Shown: positions 51,845-64,000, numbered from the stretch's first letter. The stretch: 64,000 nucleotides of DNA from Hyphomicrobiaceae bacterium (GCA_041397805.1 JAWKWD010000017.1:8234-72233), one strand, 5' to 3'. Notes: generated by a model not told the origin, from the sequence alone. Numbers and translations are program-made.

Positions 51845-53506
51845 TCAGGCGACCGTCACCTCTCGCACGATGATGGCCTCGAGAGGCGTCTTGCCGAGCA
51901 CCATGTCCGAGCCCTTCTCGGCGATCATCATGGTCGCGGCGTTGAGATTGGCCGAGAGCATCGCTGGCATGATCGAGGCGTCGATCACGCGCAAGCCCTC
52001 CATGCCGCGCACGCGCAACTGATCGTCGACGACAGCCGTCGGGTCCGACGCCGGCCCCATGCGGCAGGTGCCCATGACGTGGAACGTGGAGTTGCCCCAA
52101 AAGCGGGCGGCCTCCAACATCTCATCGTCGGTCTGGACCTCATCCCCCGGATAGTTCTCGCTGACCACATAGCGCTGCATGGCGCGCGTGTGGATCAGTT
52201 GCCGGGCGAGCCGCATGGCGGCGATGGTCGTCCGTTGGTCAACCTCTTCGGCTAGGTAGTTGGGTTGGATGATGGGCCGGTCGAAGGGATCGGCCGAGCG
52301 CGCGCGCACCCACCCTTTGCTCTGGGGGCGGTGCTGCCAGGCGGCGATCGTGAAGCCCGGATGGTCGGAAAACTCCCGCAGCGGCCCGTTCGGCCCCTTC
52401 GCGTAGCTCGCTGGCACGAATAGGAACTGGATATCGTTGCTGTTCGCTGCCGGATCTGAATGCCAGAAGCCGTAGACGAAGCTCGGCGTGAGGCCGACGA
52501 TGCTCTTCGCACCGATCAGATATTTGGCGATCTCGCCGGCCAGCTTCAGGCCTCGCGCGCGCTCGTTGATGCTCTCGACACCCTTCACGCGCACGCTGAA
52601 GCGCGGCGCATAATGGTCGCGCAGATTTTCGCCGACACCCGGCAGGTCGTGCACCACCTCGATCCCGAGAGACTGGAGCAGCGCGGGCGACCCGATGCCA
52701 GATTGCTGCAGGAGGATCGGCGAGTTGATGGTGCCGCCGGAAACGATTACCTCACGCCGCGCGCGTACCTCCACGGGCGCTCCGCCCCGCCCCCCCTTCA
52801 GATAGCGCACACCGACAGCGCGCTTGCCGTCGAGCAGCAGTCCGGTCGCGTGTGCGTTCGTACGCACGGCAAGGTTGGCGCGCTTCTTGGCCGGATTGAG
52901 AAAAGCACGCGCTGTAGAGACGCGGCGGCCGCGATAGGTCGTGCGCTGCACGTAGGAAACGCCCTCTTGGCGCTCACCGTTGTAATCGGCGTTGTGCGGA
53001 ATGCCGATTTCCTGCGCCCCTTCGATGAAGGCGTCGGCCAGGGGATGGCGATAGTCGAAGTCGGTCACCTGCAGCTGCCCCGAGCGGCCGCGGAAAGTGT
53101 CGTCGCCGGGCCCGATCCGCTGCTCGCAGCGTTTGAAGTAAGGGAGCACGTCGGAATAGCCCCAGCCTCGATTACCCTGTTGCGCCCAGCTGTCGAAATC
53201 CATGCGCTGGCCGCGGTTGTAGATGTGGCCGTTGATGGAGCTAGAGCCCCCGAGTGTCTTGCCCCGCGGAACTGCGACGGCGCGCCCGCCGATGCCGGGG
53301 CCGGGTTCGGACTCGTAGAGCCAATTGATGGAGGGGTTGGTCAGTGTCTTCAGGAAACCCGCGGGGATGTGGATATAGGGGTGCCAGTCGGGCGGGCCCG
53401 CCTCCAGAAGGCACACGCTGTGACGTCCGTCTGCGGTGAGTCGGTTCGCCAGGATGCAGCCGGCCGAGCCCGCGCCGACAATGATGAAGTCGAAGATATC
53501 CGGCAT
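51845..53506 (-). CDS. GMC family oxidoreductase (choline dehydrogenase-like), copy 2
   Basis: FDFIIVGAGSAGCILANRLT. Collinear similarity with copy 1 along the full length. The upstream extension of the ORF was rejected. Confidence 0.9.
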   Translation of the reverse strand: MPDIFDFIIVGAGSAGCILANRLTADGRHSVCLLEAGPPDWHPYIHIPAGFLKTLTNPSINWLYESEPGPGIGGRAVAVPRGKTLGGSSSINGHIYNRGQRMDFDSWAQQGNRGWGYSDVLPYFKRCEQRIGPGDDTFRGRSGQLQVTDFDYRHPLADAFIEGAQEIGIPHNADYNGERQEGVSYVQRTTYRGRRVSTARAFLNPAKKRANLAVRTNAHATGLLLDGKRAVGVRYLKGGRGGAPVEVRARREVIVSGGTINSPILLQQSGIGSPALLQSLGIEVVHDLPGVGENLRDHYAPRFSVRVKGVESINERARGLKLAGEIAKYLIGAKSIVGLTPSFVYGFWHSDPAANSNDIQFLFVPASYAKGPNGPLREFSDHPGFTIAAWQHRPQSKGWVRARSADPFDRPIIQPNYLAEEVDQRTTIAAMRLARQLIHTRAMQRYVVSENYPGDEVQTDDEMLEAARFWGNSTFHVMGTCRMGPASDPTAVVDDQLRVRGMEGLRVIDASIMPAMLSANLNAATMMIAEKGSDMVLGKTPLEAIIVREVTVA

Positions 53507-53963
53507 GATCCGACGCCCGTGTCGTTTGCGCATCCCGCGAGGTTCGCTTGTGAAGACCATATGCTGGCTCAGACGAGGGCCGAAATCCAGCCAATCTGCT
53601 GGCGTGCAAGAGGCTGAGTAGATCGCGGAGCTGATACATCCCATCTTGTCGACGCGAAGCTTCGCTACGGTCTCCATGGTCAAGCCGCGTGGTCGGCAGG
53701 CCCGAGCGTGCTTGCCGAAGCTTGGACGGGCGCCCCCGCTGCGGACCGCGGCCCGAAGTCGACGATTTGACGAATTTGCCAATGTCGCCGGCCGGCGGCA
53801 TCATCAGAAGTGCGCAGTTGGCCTCATTGATCGCCTGCATCGGGATGAATGTGTTTGCGCTATCGCCGACCGATGCGTGACCTCTAGACCTCCGGGCACG
53901 GCTCAGGAAGGGGCAAGAGGGATGGCATCGCCGGAAGGAAAAAGAGCCATAAGGGAAAAGAGC

Positions 53964-54911
53964 ATGAGATACGCGTTGGCAACGGTATCGCGGGATGGGT
54001 GCTCCGTTCCGGTCATGGAGGTCGGTGGGTCGTACTACAGGCTCGAGCAGGTTGCCTCCGAGTTGCTCGACGCAAACCCGGGTCGAGGCCTCTTGGCGCT
54101 TTTCGTTGATTGGGAGGACGCGGACCGCAAGCTCGGCGCGATTGCCGAGAGGCTCACAGCTGCGAGCCCCGCTAGGCTCGATCCTGCACCGAGAGACGAC
54201 GAGTTCCAGACGCCGTTGCAGTATCCAAGTAAGCTGCTTCTGGGAGGCGCGAACTACTACGAGCACATGCGCAAAGAGGCGAATAAGCCGGATTTTCGCA
54301 AGCAGGATGGCACGCCTGTCTTCTTTTTGAAGCCGCCGACGACGAGCCTGGTAGGCTGCGGCCGCACGGTTCGCTATCCCGCGCAATCCAGTAAATTCGA
54401 CTGGGAGATAGAGCTCGCAGTCGTGATGGGCAAGAGATTGCGCCGCGTCTCCGAGGCAGAGGCGATGCAGGGGATCGCCGCCTACGCAGTTGGCATCGAT
54501 CTTTCGGCGCGAGATTGGCAGATGAACCCGCGCCACCCCTGGAAGTTCGATCTGTTTACAGGCAAGGCCTTTGATACGTCGTGTCCGCTCGGACCAAAGC
54601 TTGTTCCTGCGCGCTTTGTCGATCCGAGCGACCTCCGCCTGTGCCTGAAGGTCAATGGCGAGATCAAGCAGGATGCGCATACGTCCGATATGATATGGAG
54701 CGTTGCCGAGCAGGTATCGGTCCTATCCGAGCATGTGACCCTGGAGCCGGGCGACATTCTCCTCACTGGCACGCCTGCTGGCGTCGGCATGGCAACTGGC
54801 TCCTATCTTAAGGTCGGCGACAGGATCGAGGCGGAGATCACGGGGCTCGGCGTGCTCAAGGTCGAAATCTTGCCCGGCGAGAAGTCGCCCCGCACACCTA
54901 CACCTGGCTGA
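53964..54911 (+). CDS. Fumarylacetoacetate hydrolase (FAH) family protein
   Basis: FDWEIELAVVMGK, IDLSARDWQ, GKAFDTSCPLGP and LEPGDILLTGTPAGVG are typical of FAH-family hydrolases/isomerases. Confidence 0.85.
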   Translation: MRYALATVSRDGCSVPVMEVGGSYYRLEQVASELLDANPGRGLLALFVDWEDADRKLGAIAERLTAASPARLDPAPRDDEFQTPLQYPSKLLLGGANYYEHMRKEANKPDFRKQDGTPVFFLKPPTTSLVGCGRTVRYPAQSSKFDWEIELAVVMGKRLRRVSEAEAMQGIAAYAVGIDLSARDWQMNPRHPWKFDLFTGKAFDTSCPLGPKLVPARFVDPSDLRLCLKVNGEIKQDAHTSDMIWSVAEQVSVLSEHVTLEPGDILLTGTPAGVGMATGSYLKVGDRIEAEITGLGVLKVEILPGEKSPRTPTPG

Positions 54912-55176
54912 GGCAGCGGCGGAATTGATCTCGCCTACTCCAAGAGCCTCCCTAGCATGAGGCCCGATGGAGGCGGAACGAGCGCCACCGACTGGTTCCG
55001 GCCTCCGAGAAATTCGTACGACACTCAAACTCGATAGTGTCGGCGATGCCGGTTGCAAATGAGATCGGCTCTTCAGAGCCTGGATCTGCTCTCCGAGGGC
55101 GGTGAAACGCTTCTGTGGCGGCCCCGTGCCCCAGTTCCCCGAAGCTCGTAGTGCCGTCGGCATCGCCCCGGAAGCC

Positions 55177-57666
55177 TCAGCGCGCATGGACTGTACGCTC
55201 CGTGCCTGTCAGATGCGCGCGTTGTGGGTCAGAGTCGAAGTCGAGCAGTCGTCGTACGGCGACGGCAATCGCGCCTTCAATTGGCAACCACGCAAGCACG
55301 TAGACCCAGACGAGCAGTGCATACTCCCAGCCGATCGGCGTAATGAACACGCCATAGACGGCAACCAGCGTGCCGATGACCTGCGTCGTCTCCGTAGTCA
55401 GGAAGAGCTTGAGGCTTGGATACGGAGGCATCCAGAACCAGCGCTGGTTGCGCGTCACGTAGATGGTGAGGTGACCGGCAACGAGCAGCTTCAGGAAGAT
55501 TACCGTCTGCAGAACGTCGCGAGGCAGGCCCAGGACGACGTCGGCGTACCAGAACAGCAGAAAACTCTCCACGACGCCGATCAGGCCGAGGCATGTGGCG
55601 ATGGTGAGCACTCGACGCATGTTCCACCGCACGGGCTTGGGAGCAACAAGGGCATTGTCGTAGGCGATCATCATGATCGGAAAATCGTTCAGGATCGCGA
55701 GCAGCACGATCATTATGGCGGTCACCGGATAGAAGTCGAACACGAGGATCGACAACGTCATGAAGACGAGCACCCGGATTGTCTCGGCGATGCGGAACGT
55801 CGCGTAGCTGGTCATCCGTTCGAAGATCTTGCGTGCCTCCTCGATCGCTGTCGTGATGACCGCCAAGCCTGAACCGGTCAGCACGACGTCAGCGGCAGCG
55901 CGCGCGGCGTCAGTGGCGCCACTCACCGCGATCCCCGCATCTGCCTGTTTCAGAGCCGGAGCATCGTTGACCCCATCGCCCGTCATGGCGACGATATGCC
56001 CATCGCGCTGCAATGCCTTCACGATGTTGAACTTGTGCTCCGGAAGGACGCGCGCGACTCCGTCGGCCGCCTCGATCCGCTCGGAAATCTCGCTGTCGCG
56101 CACGTGGTCGAACAGTGTCGTCGCAGATTGGATGTTCGATCCGAGGCCGAGCTTGCCGGCGATCTGGCGGGCAATCGCCTCGTGATCACCTGTGATCATT
56201 TTGACATCGAGGCCCATGCCGCGCGCTTTCGCTATCGTGGTCTGTGCGTCCTCGCGAGGCGGATCGAAGATCGGGATCAGTCCGAGGAACTGCCAGCTCT
56301 CGCCCTCCGTCTTGCGTGCGACGCCGAGCGCGCGATAGCCGTCTGCTCCGAGCTTATCGACCTGCGTCTCTATGGCGGCCCGCAGCTCCTGAGCCGGGTC
56401 GACGAGGTCGAGGATCACCTGGGGAGCACCCTTGCTGAAGAGCACGCTGGTGCGAGCGTCCACGATCTTGGCTTCCGTCCGCTTCGAGACGGGATCGAAT
56501 GGCGTAAACGACGTAATTTCACGAGCAGAAGAAATACCCTCGGCGGCAGCCGCTGCGAGGACCGCCTTGTCGATGGCATCGGGGTCGTTGCGGTTGCTGG
56601 CGAGACTGGCAGCGAGCAGGAGATCGCCCGTCGCCACGCCAGACGCGGGACGCAGAGGAGCAATTGTCAGCTCATTTCGGGTAAGCGTGCCGGTTTTGTC
56701 GGCACACAACACGTCGACGCCAGCCAGTTCCTCGATGGCGACGAGGCGGGAAATGATTGCCTTCAGTCGGGCGAGTCCTTCAGCTCCGACGGCCATCGTC
56801 ACCGACAGCACCGCCGGCAATGCCACCGGGATCGACGCAACCGTCAGGATCAGCGCGAACTCCAGCGTCTTCAGGAATGGTGTCTCGCGGAAAATGGACG
56901 CCGTCAAAATGATAACGACCAGGACGACAGTCGCGAGGATGAGGAAGTTGCCAATGTTGAGCACTGCACGCTGGAAATGAGAGTGCTTTTCGGCAGATTG
57001 AACGAGTTGTGCGGTCTTGCCGAAATAGGTTCGCATGCCTGTCGCCGTGACGATCCCGGTCATCTCTCCGAGCTTGATCACGGAGCCCGAATAGGCGGTC
57101 TCACCTAGCTTTTTCTCGGCTGGCAGAGACTCGCCCGTCAGCGCAGATTCATCTGCGCTCAGATAGTCGCCCTTGACGAGGAGAATGTCGGCGGGCGTCA
57201 CATTTCCGAGCCTCAGCAGCACAACGTCGCCCGGCACCAGTCCGCTCGCAGGGATAGTCTGCCAGCGGCTGTCGCGCAGCACGCGGGCCGAGAGTGCGAG
57301 CCGCTGTTTCAAGAGCGCGATAGCATTGCCCGCCTTCGTCTCTTGCCAGTAAGCCACGGCGGCGTTGACCACCAGCATGGTTACGATGATTGCAAAGTCC
57401 GCCCAGTCGCCGAGAAATGCCGACAAGACTGCGGCTGCCTCGATCATCCACGGGATCGGCCCCCAGAAATAGCCGGCGAGCTTCTTGAGCAGGCTGTCCT
57501 GTGTCTCGACGAGCGCATTGGGACCGGATTGAGCGAGCCGCTCGCGCGCCTGCACGGCCGTTAGGCCCTTTTCGATATCCGTGTTCTGAGCCTCGACAGG
57601 GATTGCCGCGTCCGGCTTGCCCGACTGTTCCTCTTCAAGTGCTTTTGACCGCATCGGCTGGTTCAT
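55177..57666 (-). CDS. P-type ATPase, P3A (plasma-membrane H+-ATPase-like) subfamily
   Basis: CADKTGTLT phosphorylation site and MITGDH. MTGDGVNDAPALKQADAGIAVSGATDAARAAADVVLTGSGLAVI closely parallels plant/fungal H+-ATPases (AHA2/PMA1) from memory. Confidence 0.85.
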   Translation of the reverse strand: MNQPMRSKALEEEQSGKPDAAIPVEAQNTDIEKGLTAVQARERLAQSGPNALVETQDSLLKKLAGYFWGPIPWMIEAAAVLSAFLGDWADFAIIVTMLVVNAAVAYWQETKAGNAIALLKQRLALSARVLRDSRWQTIPASGLVPGDVVLLRLGNVTPADILLVKGDYLSADESALTGESLPAEKKLGETAYSGSVIKLGEMTGIVTATGMRTYFGKTAQLVQSAEKHSHFQRAVLNIGNFLILATVVLVVIILTASIFRETPFLKTLEFALILTVASIPVALPAVLSVTMAVGAEGLARLKAIISRLVAIEELAGVDVLCADKTGTLTRNELTIAPLRPASGVATGDLLLAASLASNRNDPDAIDKAVLAAAAAEGISSAREITSFTPFDPVSKRTEAKIVDARTSVLFSKGAPQVILDLVDPAQELRAAIETQVDKLGADGYRALGVARKTEGESWQFLGLIPIFDPPREDAQTTIAKARGMGLDVKMITGDHEAIARQIAGKLGLGSNIQSATTLFDHVRDSEISERIEAADGVARVLPEHKFNIVKALQRDGHIVAMTGDGVNDAPALKQADAGIAVSGATDAARAAADVVLTGSGLAVITTAIEEARKIFERMTSYATFRIAETIRVLVFMTLSILVFDFYPVTAIMIVLLAILNDFPIMMIAYDNALVAPKPVRWNMRRVLTIATCLGLIGVVESFLLFWYADVVLGLPRDVLQTVIFLKLLVAGHLTIYVTRNQRWFWMPPYPSLKLFLTTETTQVIGTLVAVYGVFITPIGWEYALLVWVYVLAWLPIEGAIAVAVRRLLDFDSDPQRAHLTGTERTVHAR

Positions 57667-57857
57667 GAGAGCTGGCCCTTCTCGGTGATCCAAGTGCGCG
57701 TCGCCTCGGAATCGGAATTCGAGAAGTTGCGAACCTGGTGATGGAAGAACGGTGCAAATCGGCAGACTGCATTTCGGGGTATTGCGGACGTCCGAAGACG
57801 GCGATGCGGCCGAAATTGCTCCAAGCTACTATTCGGGGGCGCCTTTCATTATCTGGA

Positions 57858-59015
57858 TCATGGATGAGCCCTCTCGGGCTCGCGGCCGTTGGCCTTGATC
57901 CACGCGCCGATGGAGGGCCACGCATCAGCCAGCGTTCGCGAACCCATGAACAGGCCGATATGGCCGCCGGGCACGAGTCGTTTCTCAATGCGGTCTGCCG
58001 GCGTGCCCAGCAGGCCCTCGGCCTCGAAGACCTGTTCTTTCGTCGTGATGTCGTCGTCAGCGCCGGCCAGCAGAAAGACCGGTGCCGTAATCGTCTTCAA
58101 CGACAGTTTCCGCCCGAGCCCTATGAACTCGCCCTTGGCGAACTTGTTGCCCTGGAACAGCTCTCCGATTGCCTGAAGATAATAGCGGCCCGGCAAATCA
58201 AGGGGGTTCTCATACCAGCGCTCGAAGCGTTCTGTGCGCTCGATGTAGCTCTTGTCCTCGATGTGCTCATAGAGATCGATGAACTTCCCGAGATAATTCT
58301 CTCCAGGGTGCATGTTTTTCCAGCCAGCCAGCATGTACTGTCCGAGCATGCGCCCGCCGCCCGCATTCACCATCTCCTCGTAGAAGCTGAACGGCAGTTC
58401 GTGCGCGATATGCTTGATCGAGCCGTCGCCGGCGTCGGTATCGATCGGCGACCCGGCCAGCACGAGGCTCGCGACCTTGGCCGGAAACCGGCAAGCATAC
58501 ATGGCCGACATCCAACCACCTTGACAGAGGCCGACCAGATTGACGCAACCACCCAGGTCATCGATCGCGACATTGAGTTCTGCCAGATACGTGTCGATGT
58601 CGAAGTCGCGCATAGCCTCGGTTGCGCTTTTCCAATCCGTCACGAGCACACGCTCGAGGCCCGCGCCAAGCAACGTCTCCACGAGACTTTGGCCTTTGGC
58701 GTAGTCGGCGATGGTAGAGCTATGGCCGGCATATGGAGCGTCGACCAGCACAGGCAGCGCGCTCGATGTGGAATTCTGCGAGAAATCTCGCAACCGCATC
58801 GTTTCGAGTTCGAGGAGAATTCGGTTCGGCGTCGCCCATTCGGGGCGATCCGGCATCTCGATGCGCGCCGCCTCCGAGAGATAGCGCAAGTTGTCTTCAA
58901 ACAGCCTGAGATCCCTCGCTTCCATCTCGATCGTGGCGGCCATCGGCCAGAACCACGGAACGGTGTGCTCCTGCCTTGGAGTGGTCGCCTTGCGCGAACG
59001 ATGAGCGGTTGTCAT
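57858..59015 (-). CDS. Alpha/beta-hydrolase-fold protein resembling class III PHA synthase (PhaC-like)
   Basis: GLCQGGW (G-x-C-x-G-G lipase-box variant with Cys, as in PhaC) and C-terminal PGGHIGLF resembling the catalytic His region of class III PhaC. 385 aa. 4-nt overlap with the ackA stop. Confidence 0.65.
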   Translation of the reverse strand: MTTAHRSRKATTPRQEHTVPWFWPMAATIEMEARDLRLFEDNLRYLSEAARIEMPDRPEWATPNRILLELETMRLRDFSQNSTSSALPVLVDAPYAGHSSTIADYAKGQSLVETLLGAGLERVLVTDWKSATEAMRDFDIDTYLAELNVAIDDLGGCVNLVGLCQGGWMSAMYACRFPAKVASLVLAGSPIDTDAGDGSIKHIAHELPFSFYEEMVNAGGGRMLGQYMLAGWKNMHPGENYLGKFIDLYEHIEDKSYIERTERFERWYENPLDLPGRYYLQAIGELFQGNKFAKGEFIGLGRKLSLKTITAPVFLLAGADDDITTKEQVFEAEGLLGTPADRIEKRLVPGGHIGLFMGSRTLADAWPSIGAWIKANGREPERAHP

Positions 59016-60238
59016 GTGGGTGTTCCCTTCTTGTCGGGGTTTGGTACGAGGCTGCCGGTCTGCGGCAGCGCAAGGGCCCGCGTGTGGCCTGCCACCATCA
59101 GTTCCTCGTTGGTCGGGATGACGAGTACCGACACGGGGCTGTCAGCGGTGCTGATGCACTGCGCGTTCGCTGCATTGGCATCATCGTCGATGCGCACGCC
59201 GAGCCACCCGAGCCGCTCGCATACCGCACCGCGGATGCTTGCTGCACGCTCGCCGATACCGGCAGTAAACACGAGGGCGTCGAGCCCTCCCAATGCCGCA
59301 ACGAGCCCGCCGCACTCGATTGCGATGCGATACACGAAGAGTTCGACCGCCTCCCGCGCCTGCGAGCAACTGTTCGCAAGCAGCTCGCGCATGTCGCTCG
59401 ATAAGCCAGAGACGCCTTTCAAACCGCTCTCGTGGTAGAGCATGTGTTCGACTTGATCGATGCTCATGCCTCGATCGCGAATCAGCCAGATCATCAGGCC
59501 CGCATCGAGCTCGCCGGGCCGCGTTCCCATGACGAGGCCGGAAAGCGGACTGAATCCCATTGTCGTGGCGATGCTCCGCCCCGAACGAAGGGCGCAGAGG
59601 CTCGACCCGCTGCCAAGGTGCGCGACGATCGTACGACCGGTGGCCGCGGCGGGTTGGATCTCGGACAGACGGCGCGCGATGTATTCGTAGGACAGGCCGT
59701 GGAAACCGTAGCGGCGTGCCCCCGCCTCGGCGAATTGGCGAGGCAGGCCGTAAGTGCAGGCGACTTTGGGCATGCTTCGATGAAAGGCAGTGTCGAAGCA
59801 GGCGACCTGAGGCAAATGAGGATGCAGCCGGGCAAGGCTTTCGATTGGCTCAAGATTGCGGGGCAAATGCAGGGGGGCGAGCGCCTTCAGCGCCCGGAGC
59901 CTGTCGAGCACCTCGGGCGTGATGAGCGTTGGAGCAGAATGCGACAAGCCGCCGATCGCGACACGATGGCCGATCGCAGCCAGCTTGCCCTCGCCGAGAT
60001 GGGATTCAAGCCACACGGTCAGCGCTGAAATCAGCGCGTGCGTGTCGGACAGATCGCGCGGATACCAGCTCCTGTCTATGACTGTTGAGCCGTCGGGGCA
60101 TCGAGCCCAGAGTCTGGGCAGAGTGCCGATACCTTCGAGTTCGCCGTGAACCTGAGGGGCAAGATCGGCACCGTAGACTGCAAATTTGATGCTGGACGAT
60201 CCCGCGTTGACGACGAGTATGCTCTTGTTCGCGGGCAT
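59012..60238 (-). CDS. ackA: Acetate/propionate-family kinase
   Basis: ILVVNAGSSSIKFAVY N-terminus, GFHGLSYEY and TAGIGE motifs. Confidence 0.9.
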   Translation of the reverse strand: MPANKSILVVNAGSSSIKFAVYGADLAPQVHGELEGIGTLPRLWARCPDGSTVIDRSWYPRDLSDTHALISALTVWLESHLGEGKLAAIGHRVAIGGLSHSAPTLITPEVLDRLRALKALAPLHLPRNLEPIESLARLHPHLPQVACFDTAFHRSMPKVACTYGLPRQFAEAGARRYGFHGLSYEYIARRLSEIQPAAATGRTIVAHLGSGSSLCALRSGRSIATTMGFSPLSGLVMGTRPGELDAGLMIWLIRDRGMSIDQVEHMLYHESGLKGVSGLSSDMRELLANSCSQAREAVELFVYRIAIECGGLVAALGGLDALVFTAGIGERAASIRGAVCERLGWLGVRIDDDANAANAQCISTADSPVSVLVIPTNEELMVAGHTRALALPQTGSLVPNPDKKGTPT

Positions 60239-60244
60239 GGAACG

Positions 60245-61666
60245 TCACCGGGCTGTGAGTGCTGCCTGGACCTTGTCGTCTGGCTGTCGAATAGCGTTGG
60301 AGAGCAGCACGGCGATTGCGCTGGATGCGAGCCGGGTCTTGGCACTATCGGCGCGGCTCGTGAGGATGATAGGCACCCGGGCGCCAAGCACGACGCCCGC
60401 CGCCTCGGCGTCTGCTAGATATTCAAGCTGCTTGGCGAGCATGTTGCCCGCTTCGAGATCCGGCACCACGAGAATATCCGCCTGCCCGGCGACTGCCGAA
60501 TGGATGTGCTTGATCTGAGCCGCCTTGAGGTTCACCGCGTTGTCGAAGGCAAGCGGGCCATCGACGATGCCGCCGGCTATCTGCCCTCGGTCAGCCATCT
60601 TGCAGAGCGCCGCAGCTTCCAGGGTAGACCGGATCTTCGCGTTCACAGTCTCGACCGCGGATAGGATCGCGACTTTCGGACTTGGTACGCCAAGCGCGTG
60701 GGCGAGACGGATGGCGTTGTCGATGATGTCTCGCTTGGTGTCGAGGTCGGGATAGATATTGATCGCAGCATCCGTGATCAGCAGCGCGCGCGGATAGCTC
60801 GGCACATCCATCACGAAGACGTGGCTGATGCGCCGCTCCGTGCGAAGATTGGGAGCGCTTGCAACAACGGCGTGCATCAGCGCGTCCGTGTGCAACGCGC
60901 CCTTCATCAGTGCGTCGACTTTCCCGGTGGCGGCCAGCTCCACGGCTTTGCTGGCCGCGAGGTCGTTCGTAGCGGTCGGCACGATCTCGAAGGCCAGGAT
61001 ATCGAGCTTCGCGGCCCGGGCCGCCTGGCGGATCGCCTCCGCCGGACCAATCAGAGTTGGGATGATGAGGTGCTCCCGCGCACTTTCGACCGCGCCAGAG
61101 AGAGAAACTGTATCTGTTGGAGCGACGACCGCCGTCCGCATGGGTGGGGACTTTTGAGCCTCGATGATGAGCTTGCGGAGGCGCGCGCCTCGCTCCTCGA
61201 TCCTGATGTCGGGAAGCACCACACGCGGCCGGGCAACCTTTTCGGTGGGCGCCAGAACGGTTGCCGTCCCCGCGATGACCTGCTTCCCCGCTTGATCAAC
61301 GACTGAGCAATCAAGCTTCACGTGGCGCCTGCCACCGTCCTTTTCCCGCACGACAACCGTGACGACCACCGTGTCGCCGGGAGCGACCGGATGACAAAAA
61401 TGCAGGCTTTGATCGACATAAATAGTGCCGGGCCCAGGCAGCTCCGTGCCCAGCACCGTGGAGATCAATGACGCCGCCCACATGCCGTGAGCGATAATCT
61501 TGTGGAACATGTCGCTTCGGGCAAATTCGTCATCGACGTGCGCCGGGTTGACATCGCCGGACATGACGGCGAACAGCTCGATGTCGCGGCGGCTCAGCGT
61601 CCGGCTCAGGCTCGCGCGGTCTCCAACTTTGATCTCGTCCCACGTCCTGTTTTCGATCAAAGTCAT
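60245..61666 (-). CDS. Bifunctional MaoC-like enoyl-CoA hydratase / phosphate acyl-transferase (PTA_PTB)
   Basis: N-terminal hotdog (SGDVNPAHVDDEFARSDMFHKIIAHGMW) fused to a PTA/PTB domain (...DAAINIYPD...GPLAFDNAV...ADILVVPDLEAGNMLAK). Confidence 0.88.
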   Translation of the reverse strand: MTLIENRTWDEIKVGDRASLSRTLSRRDIELFAVMSGDVNPAHVDDEFARSDMFHKIIAHGMWAASLISTVLGTELPGPGTIYVDQSLHFCHPVAPGDTVVVTVVVREKDGGRRHVKLDCSVVDQAGKQVIAGTATVLAPTEKVARPRVVLPDIRIEERGARLRKLIIEAQKSPPMRTAVVAPTDTVSLSGAVESAREHLIIPTLIGPAEAIRQAARAAKLDILAFEIVPTATNDLAASKAVELAATGKVDALMKGALHTDALMHAVVASAPNLRTERRISHVFVMDVPSYPRALLITDAAINIYPDLDTKRDIIDNAIRLAHALGVPSPKVAILSAVETVNAKIRSTLEAAALCKMADRGQIAGGIVDGPLAFDNAVNLKAAQIKHIHSAVAGQADILVVPDLEAGNMLAKQLEYLADAEAAGVVLGARVPIILTSRADSAKTRLASSAIAVLLSNAIRQPDDKVQAALTAR

Positions 61667-61678
61667 GTCGCACTCCGA

Positions 61679-62443
61679 TCAGCCGAGGACGTGATACCCG
61701 CCATCGACGTAGCTGATGTTGCCTGTGACCGCCTTTGCTGCGTCGCCGACGAGGAAGCCCGCAAACGCGCCGACGTCGTCCGGTGTCACCGGCATATGCG
61801 TGGGTGCGGCTGCGAGAGCGCGCTGTAGCAATGCGTCGAATTGGTCGATCCCCGACGCCGCCCTCGTCCTGACTGGACCCGGCGAAAGAGCATTGACGCG
61901 GATGTGCTTCGGTCCGAGCTCTACCGCCAGGTAGCGCACTGCGGCTTCGAGCGCCGCCTTGACCGGCCCCATGACGTTGTAGTGCTCAACAGCCTTTTCT
62001 GCGCCGTAGTAGCTCATGGCGAGCAGCGCGCCACCGCAGGGCATCAGCGGCTCGGCCAACCTCGCCATCCGTATGAAGGAGTGTACCGAAACCTGCATGG
62101 CGAGCGTGAAGCCGTCGGCCGAGCAGTCCGTCAAGCGGCCATGCAGGTCGCCCTTGGGCGCAAAGGCGATCGAGTGAAGTGCGAAATCGAGCTGTCCCCA
62201 ATCTCTGGCAATGCGCTCATAGACTGCCTCGAGCGCGCCCGGCGCCATCACATCGCATGGCATGACGATCGGATGACCGAGTGAACCGACAAGCGGCCGA
62301 ACGAATGGCTCTGTCTTGGCATTGAAGTAAGTGATTGCGAGATCGGCACCGGCCTGGCGAAAATGGCGGGCGCAGCCGTAGGCCAAGCTGTCTTCGTTGG
62401 CGATGCCGACGACCAAGCCCTTCTTACCGCTGAGTTGGCCCAT
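61679..62443 (-). CDS. fabI: Enoyl-[acyl-carrier-protein] reductase (NADH), FabI-like SDR
   Basis: GKKGLVVGIANEDSLAYGCA, SIAFAP, MGPVKAALEA and RVNALSPGP motifs. GGGAGG RBS before the ATG at 62443. The 230-codon upstream extension of the ORF runs across a tRNA gene and was rejected. Confidence 0.88.
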   Translation of the reverse strand: MGQLSGKKGLVVGIANEDSLAYGCARHFRQAGADLAITYFNAKTEPFVRPLVGSLGHPIVMPCDVMAPGALEAVYERIARDWGQLDFALHSIAFAPKGDLHGRLTDCSADGFTLAMQVSVHSFIRMARLAEPLMPCGGALLAMSYYGAEKAVEHYNVMGPVKAALEAAVRYLAVELGPKHIRVNALSPGPVRTRAASGIDQFDALLQRALAAAPTHMPVTPDDVGAFAGFLVGDAAKAVTGNISYVDGGYHVLG

Positions 62444-63027
62444 GCGAGCCTCCCGGGTTTGCTTCGTGGGAACCGGGTCCACCGCCCGACTTGGCGGCGG
62501 GCTCTGCTGCATTGCAACATGGAGTTCTGCGGCGTTCATTTCAAGAGAGGAGGCCTGTGCGAAGGCGGACTTGATTCCTTCGCCGCTGTGCCAAGACCCT
62601 CGAGGTCTGCGCGCGGCTCCCTGTTGCCATCGACGCAACTTGTGCGGGGGCCGGGCACACGAGTGACGCAATTCGTGTCGGAGCCGCCGTATTCTTCTGG
62701 CGCGCGTCACTTCCCCAAAGGCAAACACGGGTCCGGCGATTTCCGGGACGCTCAGCGGCGCCGGACCGATCGCGGATCTCAACGGACAGCACGGCCCCGC
62801 GCGATCGCGGCTGCCCGAACCGTCACGCCGGCGCTTCTCGTTACCGTGGTGGCCTCGTGTGTGCTGCTCGGGGCATCGACGAGCGGGGAGCAGCGGTGGT
62901 CGTGGTGGTGGCGTGGCACGCCCCGCCGGAGTTGGCAGTGGAAGCCCAGCACGTACGGAGTACTTCGGCGGCGCAACAAGCGCTGGCCCGAGGCAAAGAA
63001 ATGCGACAGCCGCGCTGCAAGAGAAGT

Positions 63028-63104
<77 letters not shown>

Positions 63105-63413
63105 TCACCTGCCGCGCAGAACGCTCTGTTCCGAAGCATGAGCCCCGGGACAACGCCTCCGAACCATCCAAAATCGGATTTGGCGACACCCCAGAAGGGA
63201 CGTCGATAGGAGAGAAGAGCGCCTTGCGACGGCCGTCTTATAGCAGGTTTTGTGACGAGGGAAACACCCGTCGTGAAGGAAATTTCCCGAGCCTTCCGGA
63301 CAACTGTACGGATGACGACTGGGAGTGCCGCCGCGCGGCCGTCAGGCCGCAGCCCGTCATGTTGGCAAAGGCGGCCAAGTCAAGGGAGAGAGGGCCGGAG
63401 GCCGCCACCTCAC

Positions 63414-63926
63414 CTATCCAGAGGCCGCGGCCGGTGGAAGAGAGCACTCGAGGGCCAACACGATGGACGAGCTTTGCTGAAGCAGGAGCCGCGTGCATAG
63501 CCACTGCTCGCGCGCATTCGCGGTTTCGGCCGCGAGGATCACGGCACCGTCCTGCACATTTCGCTCGAGATCAGCAGCGAGCCGCGGCGCTTCCCCGCCG
63601 CTCGGAGCGTCGCCCCATAGTGCCGGGAGCCGCGAGCCCGACCGCCAGGGCTCCAAAAGCCTTGGACTGGCGAGTATTCCGCGCCCCTCATAGGCTTGCG
63701 AAAGCGGGGTGAGCTTGCGCACCAGGTCGAGCATGCTCGCGCCGTCCCCTGGACTTGCCCGTGAAGCATCCGCTGCCAGACGCTCGGCAGTCGCCGCCTG
63801 CAGAATGAGGCCGAGCCGTCCGATCGGTATCCCTTCACGAAGCAGCGAAGCAATCGCGGAGCCCAGCGGCCCGGCTAGGTCGAAAACGGCAAGGGCAATT
63901 CTGAGTTTGCGATCCTTGACGCACAT
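63414..63926 (-). CDS. Hypothetical protein (170 aa)
   Basis: ORF with plausible composition from the ATG at 63926 (MCVKDRKLRIALAVFDLAG...). No family recognised. Confidence 0.3.
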   Translation of the reverse strand: MCVKDRKLRIALAVFDLAGPLGSAIASLLREGIPIGRLGLILQAATAERLAADASRASPGDGASMLDLVRKLTPLSQAYEGRGILASPRLLEPWRSGSRLPALWGDAPSGGEAPRLAADLERNVQDGAVILAAETANAREQWLCTRLLLQQSSSIVLALECSLPPAAASG

Positions 63927-64000
63927 GCCTGCTCGTCCACGTCTGTCGACGCCACTGCCGCGCCGCGGCTGTGTCGCCCGTTCCGGCACGGCGACCCCCG

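Follow-up and report, generated by a model that had tools for sequence, protein, structure and literature searches.

An accessory operon joining a PhaC-superfamily enzyme, a hydratase-phosphotransacylase fusion, an acyl kinase and a FabI paralogue, with a possible fermentative role around poly(3-hydroxybutyrate)

What could a PhaC-like enzyme, a hydratase fused to a phosphotransacylase, an acyl kinase and a second FabI do together in one gene cluster? The question is raised by a 64,000-nucleotide stretch of DNA from a Hyphomicrobiaceae bacterium, here called the window, which comprises C17:8234-72233 of a 4.2-Mb alphaproteobacterial assembly that is 75% complete. A sequence-only reading of the window had proposed that these genes form a chain leading from poly(3-hydroxybutyrate) (PHB) to ATP. 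The genes, in operon order, are:

62443..61679, minus strand: operon gene 1, fabI-like, encoding a FabI paralogue of 254 aa.
61666..60245, minus strand: operon gene 2, encoding a MaoC::PTA_PTB fusion of 473 aa.
60238..59012, minus strand: operon gene 3, encoding an ackA-family acetate/propionate kinase of 408 aa.
59015..57858, minus strand: operon gene 4, encoding a PhaC-superfamily alpha/beta hydrolase of 385 aa.

The four genes are one accessory operon, a module of PhaC-superfamily enzyme, phosphotransacylase, acyl kinase and FabI. The list of open reading frames (ORFs) and their translations bear out the four minus-strand genes and the tight spacing of the sequence-only reading, with spacers of 12 nt between fabI and the fusion gene and 6 nt between the fusion gene and ackA, and a 4-nt ATGA overlap of the ackA stop with the hydrolase start. 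All four genes look intact. The operon is flanked by the following features:

63028..63104, minus strand: tRNA-Met (CAT), the upstream bound of the operon, found by ARAGORN and scoring 64.9 bits for Rfam tRNA.
62444..63027, minus strand: a leader of 584 nt between tRNA-Met and fabI.
55177..57666, minus strand: a P3A proton-efflux P-type ATPase, scoring 950 bits for TIGR01647 against a cut-off of 615.5.

An extension of the fabI frame to 63139 was rejected as spurious because it runs through the tRNA-Met gene. Co-transcription of the four genes had also been proposed. In a single wastewater study, two metatranscriptome runs yielded contigs over fabI, the fusion gene and the hydrolase gene, and in each run one contig bridges the fabI/fusion junction; the cover of these contigs excludes the ATPase gene and most of the leader. 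The bridging contigs agree with expression and with co-transcription, and to that extent the proposal stands, but they fall short of proving a single transcript for the whole operon.

The operon is accessory because it is sparse in its genus, is flanked by a tRNA gene and has a slightly lower G+C content. Within the genus of the window the family was matched in three of 23 other genomes, with a full-length fusion in only one, and G+C is ~0.60-0.63 in 55000-63400 compared with 0.65 nearby. The tRNA-Met gene abutting the operon, the lower G+C and the single congener with the fusion also suggest horizontal acquisition. Near-identical DNA is present in wastewater metagenomes.

The fusion protein matches NF006045 at 724 bits (cut-off 282), along positions 4-462 of the 467-position profile, and the Pfam families MaoC_dehydratas and PTA_PTB, with a PhaJ/MaoC hot-dog domain at residues ~1-156 and a PTB-type phosphotransacylase at ~160-460. 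Both domains lie in one chain, as expected of a hydratase/phosphotransacylase fusion, and the chain contains SGDVNPAH, which we take to be the hydratase-2 signature. Its nearest solved structures are a phosphate butyryltransferase (7vg9, 226 bits) and an (R)-hydratase (5cpg, 120 bits). Among solved structures the PTA domain thus scores 226 bits with Ptb and ~50 bits with Pta; its score for the phosphate butyryltransferase equivalog TIGR02706, 300 bits, lies below the cut-off of 410.5. The hydratase domain is predicted to be PhaJ-like and (R)-specific.

The kinase matches Pfam Acetate_kinase (363 bits) and exceeds the TIGR00016 cut-off for acetate/propionate kinases (350 bits against 293), with the motifs GHR, GFHG, MGTRPG and PTNEE present. 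Its nearest solved structures are propionate kinases, and in its segment GHRVAIGG it has Ala at the position of A88 in Salmonella TdcD, as in wild-type TdcD. This position is altered in deposited variants, to Val in 4xh4 and to Gly in 4xh5, and the A88V enzyme presumably represents the acetate-kinase state. Ala at the pocket was considered as a family-wide marker of longer-chain substrates and rejected, most linked kinases having Val. A separate feature of the same segment is that hydrolase-linked kinases replace the His of GHRVVHGG by Leu or Ile (GHRVVLGG, GHRVAIGG, GHRVALGG; here at 59900-59990, residues ~88-95), fusion-linked kinases elsewhere retaining GHRVVHGG; the replacement may mark a kinase subfamily.

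The operon FabI scores 416.7 bits for NF005717 against a cut-off of 337, which makes it an NADH enoyl-thioester reductase of the PRK07533 type, and its sequence contains HYNVMGPVK, which we assume to be the Tyr-X6-Lys active-site signature of FabI. A housekeeping FabI is encoded on contig C4 (NF006019, 499 bits, cut-off 452) and is 46% identical to it, so that, as in the known stress operon, a dedicated FabI paralogue accompanies the housekeeping enzyme. Reduction by FabI-type enzymes is effectively one-way, from enoyl to acyl, and is a sink for NADH.

The hydrolase had been read as a Cys-type enzyme from its GLCQGGW box, and this was confirmed: the box occupies residues 162-168, and C164, D321, H352 and W267 are invariant in an alignment with 23 homologues of 42-79% identity. 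The protein matches Pfam PHB_depo_C over the full domain length (55.8 bits, cut-off 27) and DUF3141 (PF11339; 62.4 bits, cut-off 29.7), the latter covering only profile positions 71-318 of 582, whereas true DUF3141 partners score 754-944 bits. It falls below the cut-offs for class III PhaC (TIGR01836, 135 bits against 365), for PhaZ (TIGR01849, 102 against 300.75) and for class I PhaC (49 against 623). The intracellular PhaZ that had been noted elsewhere in the window, at 853-2223, is real, its gene being placed here at 853-2271 with 599 bits for TIGR01849, and the hydrolase is only 27% identical to it. An AlphaFold (AF2) model of the hydrolase (predicted local distance difference test, pLDDT, 82; predicted template-modelling score, pTM, 0.81) finds polyhydroxyalkanoate (PHA) synthases as all of its top PDB matches, namely the PhaC proteins of Aeromonas caviae, Chromobacterium and Cupriavidus (E ~1e-17 to 1e-18, template-modelling scores 0.60-0.66), lipases being the next structural class at 5e-11. 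Alignment and model together identify a PhaC-superfamily Cys-Asp-His enzyme, which would belong to an unnamed subfamily between class III PhaC and intracellular PhaZ; in public annotation it is an ‘alpha/beta fold hydrolase’ or, by guess, a ‘PHB depolymerase’. The operon therefore contains a Cys-nucleophile enzyme of the PhaC superfamily, but of another subfamily and in another position than the published partners.

Synthase and thiolytic depolymerase catalyse one reaction in opposite directions, and the triad of the hydrolase cannot separate the two activities. The genome also encodes PhaR and two PhaC-type proteins, a canonical class I enzyme (740 bits) and a class I-like one (510 bits); a search of the assembly for PhaE gave no match, and the control of the same search matched nothing either. 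An apparent AckA-hydrolase fusion (P0089, 628 aa) was rejected as Rosetta-stone evidence, its kinase part being garbled by frameshifts and the fusion an assembly artefact.

The linkage of these genes recurs widely. Two censuses were made, one of the 80 best loci anchored on the fusion and one of 80 metagenome loci anchored on the hydrolase; some of the latter are near-duplicates, and their counts are non-independent. The sequence-only reading had mentioned similar gene sets from alpha- and betaproteobacteria, and the set indeed recurs there and beyond, relatives of the fusion being found in at least 592 species of Alpha-, Beta- and Gammaproteobacteria, Chloroflexi and Acidobacteria. In about 60 of the 80 best fusion loci ackA follows the fusion gene, the pairing of the known operons and also that seen here across the 6-nt gap. 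A PhaC-like gene of class I type, scoring 531-551 bits and thus short of the cut-off of 623, is present in 29 of the 80, in many cases immediately upstream of fabI or of the fusion gene, and the order phaC-fabI-fusion-ackA is found in the Rhodobacterales loci L033, L069, L050 and L023. Other neighbours of the fusion are class II ribonucleotide reductase (RNR; 13 loci), subunits of NAD-reducing [NiFe] hydrogenase (12 loci), an alternative F-type ATPase (six loci), P-type ATPases and universal stress proteins (USPs). These neighbourhoods point to low-oxygen, ATP-spending energy metabolism tied to PHB. Examples of a fusion-ackA pair beside a class II (B12) RNR, a Hox-type hydrogenase or an N-type ATPase are L022:12709-15756, L075:7391-9511, L072:7832-9793 and L079:15975-19638.

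The short hydrolase is rarer. It was found in seven of 301 evenly sampled alphaproteobacterial genomes, all seven of which have a canonical class I PhaC compared with 181 of the 301 overall, a weak enrichment. Among 72 informative metagenome loci, ackA lies directly upstream of the hydrolase on the same strand in 31 (43%), and the metagenome loci also contain thiolase (11), pyruvate kinase (seven), a STAS-domain gene (five) and USP genes (four). The hydrolase may be preceded by pyruvate kinase, faced by thiolase or followed by a SpoIIAA-like STAS gene (L168:2578-4017, L172:1982-3166 and L155:1538-1915); a STAS gene also occurs in Hoeflea (L103:11170-11538), whose hydrolase has neither pta-ackA nor the ATPase alongside. 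In one congener (G308) there are three PTA-only genes (C13:19138-20061, C11:239300-240220 and C12:379284-380204), and both of those examined, on C13 and C11, are paired with ackA. The PhaC-superfamily slot is thus held by three types of protein, the class I-like PhaC, DUF3141 with its GNCQAGW box, and the short type; three subfamilies in one slot speak for a functional slot.

The role that we favour for the operon, tentatively and a little short of an even chance of being right, is fermentative management of energy and redox balance, coupled to the PHB cycle under limited respiration and with a mixed acetate/C4 output. The Cys-Asp-His enzyme would move (R)-3-hydroxybutyryl units from polymer to CoA or back, and the PhaJ domain would dehydrate (R)-3-hydroxybutyryl-CoA to crotonyl-CoA. 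The FabI paralogue would reduce crotonyl-CoA with NADH to butyryl-CoA, serving as an electron sink and giving the sequence an exergonic pull. The PTB-type domain may then convert short acyl-CoAs (acetyl, probably C3/C4 too) to acyl phosphates, from which the kinase would make ATP and the free acid. With a thiolase and a 3-hydroxybutyryl-CoA dehydrogenase encoded elsewhere, textbook energetics and known fermentations of crotonate and 3-hydroxybutyrate suggest that 3-hydroxybutyryl units could be dismutated in redox balance to acetate and butyrate with a gain of ATP, which the proton ATPase could spend on membrane potential or pH. The gene identities, the intact catalytic motifs, the recurring linkage and the published induction of related operons by low oxygen or phosphate stress are established, whereas we infer the substrates, the direction of flux and the part of the ATPase. 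Support for this role comes from these findings, from the PHB enzymes and low-oxygen genes near the module, and from the Ptb-like PTA, the PhaJ-like hydratase, the extra FabI and the Ala of the kinase. The PHB-to-ATP chain of the sequence-only reading is in the same position: the gene identities, the coherence of the chemistry, the linkage to PHB enzymes, the low-oxygen context and the Ptb-like and PhaJ-like character of the fusion speak for it, but they do not extend to its C4 flux or to PHB as the source rather than the sink.

A number of findings weigh against this role. The kinase scores only 46 bits for butyrate kinase (TIGR02707, cut-off 289), and Val, as in A88V TdcD, occupies the pocket position in most fusion-linked kinases. 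With the Pta of the Sinorhizobium meliloti orfA-pta-ackA-fabI operon, which we take to have phosphotransacetylase activity, the PTA domain shares 64% identity. The pta-ackA pair of the operon is the sole one found in the assembly, so a plain acetate role is possible. Within the fusion, the hydratase and the phosphotransacylase would serve non-consecutive steps. A FabI of the operon type lies near the fusion in only about 20 of the 80 loci, and several hydrolase loci have a PTA without a MaoC domain, which puts the reductive branch outside the core of the module. The 584-nt leader has neither an FNR/FixK box (TTGAT-N4-ATCAA, up to two mismatches) nor a Pho box (up to three mismatches). Finally, the class I PhaC RSP_1257 (phaC2) of Rhodobacter sphaeroides acts as a synthase when overexpressed, polymerase activity rising from 0.7 to 3.4 U/g and PHB being raised (PMC6390342), so PHB synthesis is at least possible.

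Several of these findings would be expected if the module served acetate overflow only, with Pta-AckA converting acetyl-CoA to acetate and ATP under limited respiration or phosphate, the PhaC-like enzyme polymerising (R)-3-hydroxybutyryl-CoA as an electron sink and PhaJ and FabI merely trimming the pool of enoyl- and hydroxyacyl-CoA, with no C4 acyl phosphate being formed and PHB not serving as fuel. The resemblance to the S. meliloti Pta, the Val of most linked kinases, the sole pta-ackA pair and the synthase behaviour of RSP_1257 all fit such an arrangement, and PHA synthesis was proposed as the electron sink of the lxa genes by Sass et al. (PMC3721108). However, overflow to acetate leaves unexplained why a PhaJ-phosphotransacylase fusion should be kept in at least 592 species and why the module should include an extra NADH enoyl reductase. 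The phosphotransacylase is far nearer to solved Ptb than to Pta, the kinase here has the Ala of wild-type propionate kinase, and the PhaC-like enzyme comes on top of a canonical PhaC, a second class I-like PhaC and a PhaZ in the same organism. We consider this explanation unlikely, while giving it serious weight.

An assimilatory role has been proposed for related clusters in a Burkholderia review (PMC8231600) and in a Cobetia/Halomonas paper (PMC8686332). The kinase and phosphotransacylase would then activate external acetate, propionate or butyrate, and PhaJ and the PhaC-like enzyme would channel the products into PHA. The Pta-AckA couple is reversible. FabI, however, works in the reductive sense, enoyl to acyl, which leads away from the precursors of PHA, and hence would have no role, and the class II RNR, hydrogenase, USPs and ion pumps nearby, like the published low-oxygen induction, point to energy stress and not to storage of excess carbon; assimilation is thus improbable here. 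A role in signalling or phosphate economy, in which the module sets the pool of acetyl phosphate as phosphodonor of response regulators or spares phosphate and the PHB-type genes are passengers, could draw on PhoB control of the S. meliloti operon, as cited in that review (PMC8231600), and on the link between acetyl phosphate and PhoB discussed for Herbaspirillum (PMC8222739), but it is very improbable, since the three PhaC partners, FabI and the PhaJ fusion are kept across phyla, which is hard to fit to passengers, and the leader here lacks a Pho box.

The proton ATPase possibly belongs to the functional unit. Its gene lies 191 nt downstream of the hydrolase gene on the same strand, and the 191-nt spacer between them has no terminator-like site. 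A similar ATPase gene directly follows the hydrolase gene in Roseibium, where pta-ackA is absent, and a P3A-like ATPase gene is directly downstream of the hydrolase gene in seven of 62 metagenome loci; an ATPase of this kind also adjoins pta/ack in L096, L012, L021 and L065. Three flanking candidate ORFs on the minus strand, at 63414-63989, 53241-54680 and 54723-55187 (191, 479 and 154 aa), match no Pfam or NCBIfam model.

How the operon might be controlled can be approached from its leader. A promoter with an FNR/FixK/Anr or Pho box, a mark of the known operons, was not found here. The only FNR/FixK and Pho boxes of the window lie inside coding sequence and were rejected as chance occurrences, with 12 seen window-wide and 11.5 expected. 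The upstream regions of related loci have no shared motif, and an Rfam scan of 57000-64000 returned the tRNA alone, with no leader match at threshold. The contigs from the RNA libraries end at 62465-62477, a weak hint on the leader. An imperfect palindrome, TGTTGCAATGCAGCA, lies at 62505-62519, ~62 nt upstream of the fabI start and ~30-40 nt upstream of the contig ends; it is self-complementary at 12 of 15 positions and has no FNR consensus. A regulator of the CRP/FNR family is encoded ~1 kb upstream of tRNA-Met on the same strand and is linked to the operon by position only. It and a further gene upstream of it are:

G000:C17:72300-73757 (L008:1301-2758), minus strand: FixK-like regulator, the real gene being at ~64067-64800 in window coordinates, beyond the window end.
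G000:C17:73898-74953 (L008:2899-3954), minus strand: stand-alone MaoC/(R)-enoyl-CoA hydratase-like gene (351 aa), perhaps with a double hot-dog fold.

The FixK-like protein scores 139 bits for FixK and 127 bits for Fnr, both under the cut-off, and is without an N-terminal Cys cluster. It was rejected as a conserved neighbour, being present in only three of ~170 related loci.

The favoured role in energy and redox management can be taken further, to a dedicated, horizontally mobile ‘PHB-to-ATP’ pathway in aerobic PHB accumulators. The polymer would be cleaved by CoA, or by phosphate, and its C4 units carried by the PhaJ::Ptb fusion, the FabI paralogue and the kinase to acetate, butyrate and substrate-level ATP, with the short hydrolase as entry enzyme and the P3A ATPase energising the membrane independently of respiration. 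Cleavage by CoA or directly by phosphate would conserve the energy of the ester bond in 3-hydroxybutyryl-CoA or in 3-hydroxybutyryl phosphate. This extension is speculative and rather unlikely. If PHB were indeed converted to acids and ATP, the route would be a new endogenous fermentation, the ‘extra’ PhaC, DUF3141 and short-hydrolase genes would be explained, and light would fall on how Burkholderia persists without oxygen and how PHA is turned over in wastewater processes. Drawing energy from stored PHB once oxygen is exhausted matters for strictly respiratory bacteria, in soils and nodules as well as in activated sludge and the lung in cystic fibrosis. Three model organisms show strong induction of the module under low oxygen or phosphate stress. 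The compact variant, with its short hydrolase and proton ATPase, may be the simplest form to reconstitute.

Of the known systems, the S. meliloti orfA-pta-ackA-fabI operon was reportedly described by Summers, Denton and McDermott in 1999 (J Bacteriol 181:2217) as co-transcribed and stress-induced. All four of its components are homologous to those of the window, with identities in strain Rm41 of 64% for PTA, 54% for AckA and 57% for FabI, and the GNCQAGW, FERWW and GDNIT segments of OrfA align with GLCQGGW, FERWY and DDDIT of the hydrolase. The two operons differ in that OrfA is a full-length DUF3141 protein (~600 aa) encoded first, whereas here a 385-aa short type is encoded last; in that the S. 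meliloti Pta lacks a MaoC/PhaJ domain; in that fabI is last there and first here; and in that a Pho box is reported there and none was found in the leader here. On the megaplasmid of strain Rm41 the order is DUF3141 (944 bits), pta, ackA, fabI. Control of this operon by PhoB is cited in the Burkholderia review (PMC8231600).

The R. sphaeroides genes RSP1257-4 (phbC fabI ...) are preceded by an FnrL site found by chromatin immunoprecipitation and are a direct, positively regulated target of FnrL (PMC2908626), and RSP1257-1254 are also an MppG target (PMC4263372). This operon resembles that of the window in combining a PhaC-type gene with fabI, and it is under positive control at low oxygen. It differs in having a class I-like PhaC upstream and an FnrL box, TTGAGcaagATCAA, which is absent here; in the window a proton ATPase gene follows the operon. 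In B. cenocepacia the lxa genes for acetate kinase, phosphate acetyl/butyryl transferase, PhaC and PhaB are raised 75-242-fold at low oxygen (PMC3721108). The earlier statement that such gene sets have no defined physiological role thus holds for their biochemistry but not for their regulation, which is published.

The Burkholderia lxa locus BCAM0293-0299 and the phaC groups D1/D2 share with the window the clustering of PhaC, a phaJ::pta fusion, ackA and fabI or phaB (PMC3721108, PMC8231600), and the lxa locus also has a cation-transporting P-type ATPase. In contrast to the window, the lxa genes are betaproteobacterial, have a class I PhaC and lie in a 50-gene island with USPs and class II RNR; the roles proposed for the Burkholderia clusters are PHA synthesis as an electron sink or acetate feeding. 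The Halomonas/Cobetia cluster phaC1-fabI-bi-pta-ackA likewise sets FabI, a bifunctional hydratase/Pta and AckA beside PhaC, but it is gammaproteobacterial, has a class I PhaC1 and has been read as a route from acetate to PHA (PMC8686332).

The chemistry suggested here would be that of the clostridial Hbd-Crt-Bcd/Etf-Ptb-Buk branch and of crotonate/3-hydroxybutyrate dismutation. The clostridial branch leads from 3-hydroxybutyryl-CoA through crotonyl-CoA, butyryl-CoA and butyryl phosphate to butyrate and ATP. The predicted enzymes differ, with an (R)-specific PhaJ in place of an (S)-specific crotonase, a FabI-type reductase in place of Bcd/Etf and an AckA-family kinase in place of Buk. The gene set, its regulation by stress and its link to PHA genes are thus already known, while the local novelty is a short PhaC-superfamily partner placed after ackA and followed by a P3A proton ATPase; in the clusters published so far this partner is a class I-like PhaC or a DUF3141 protein and comes first.

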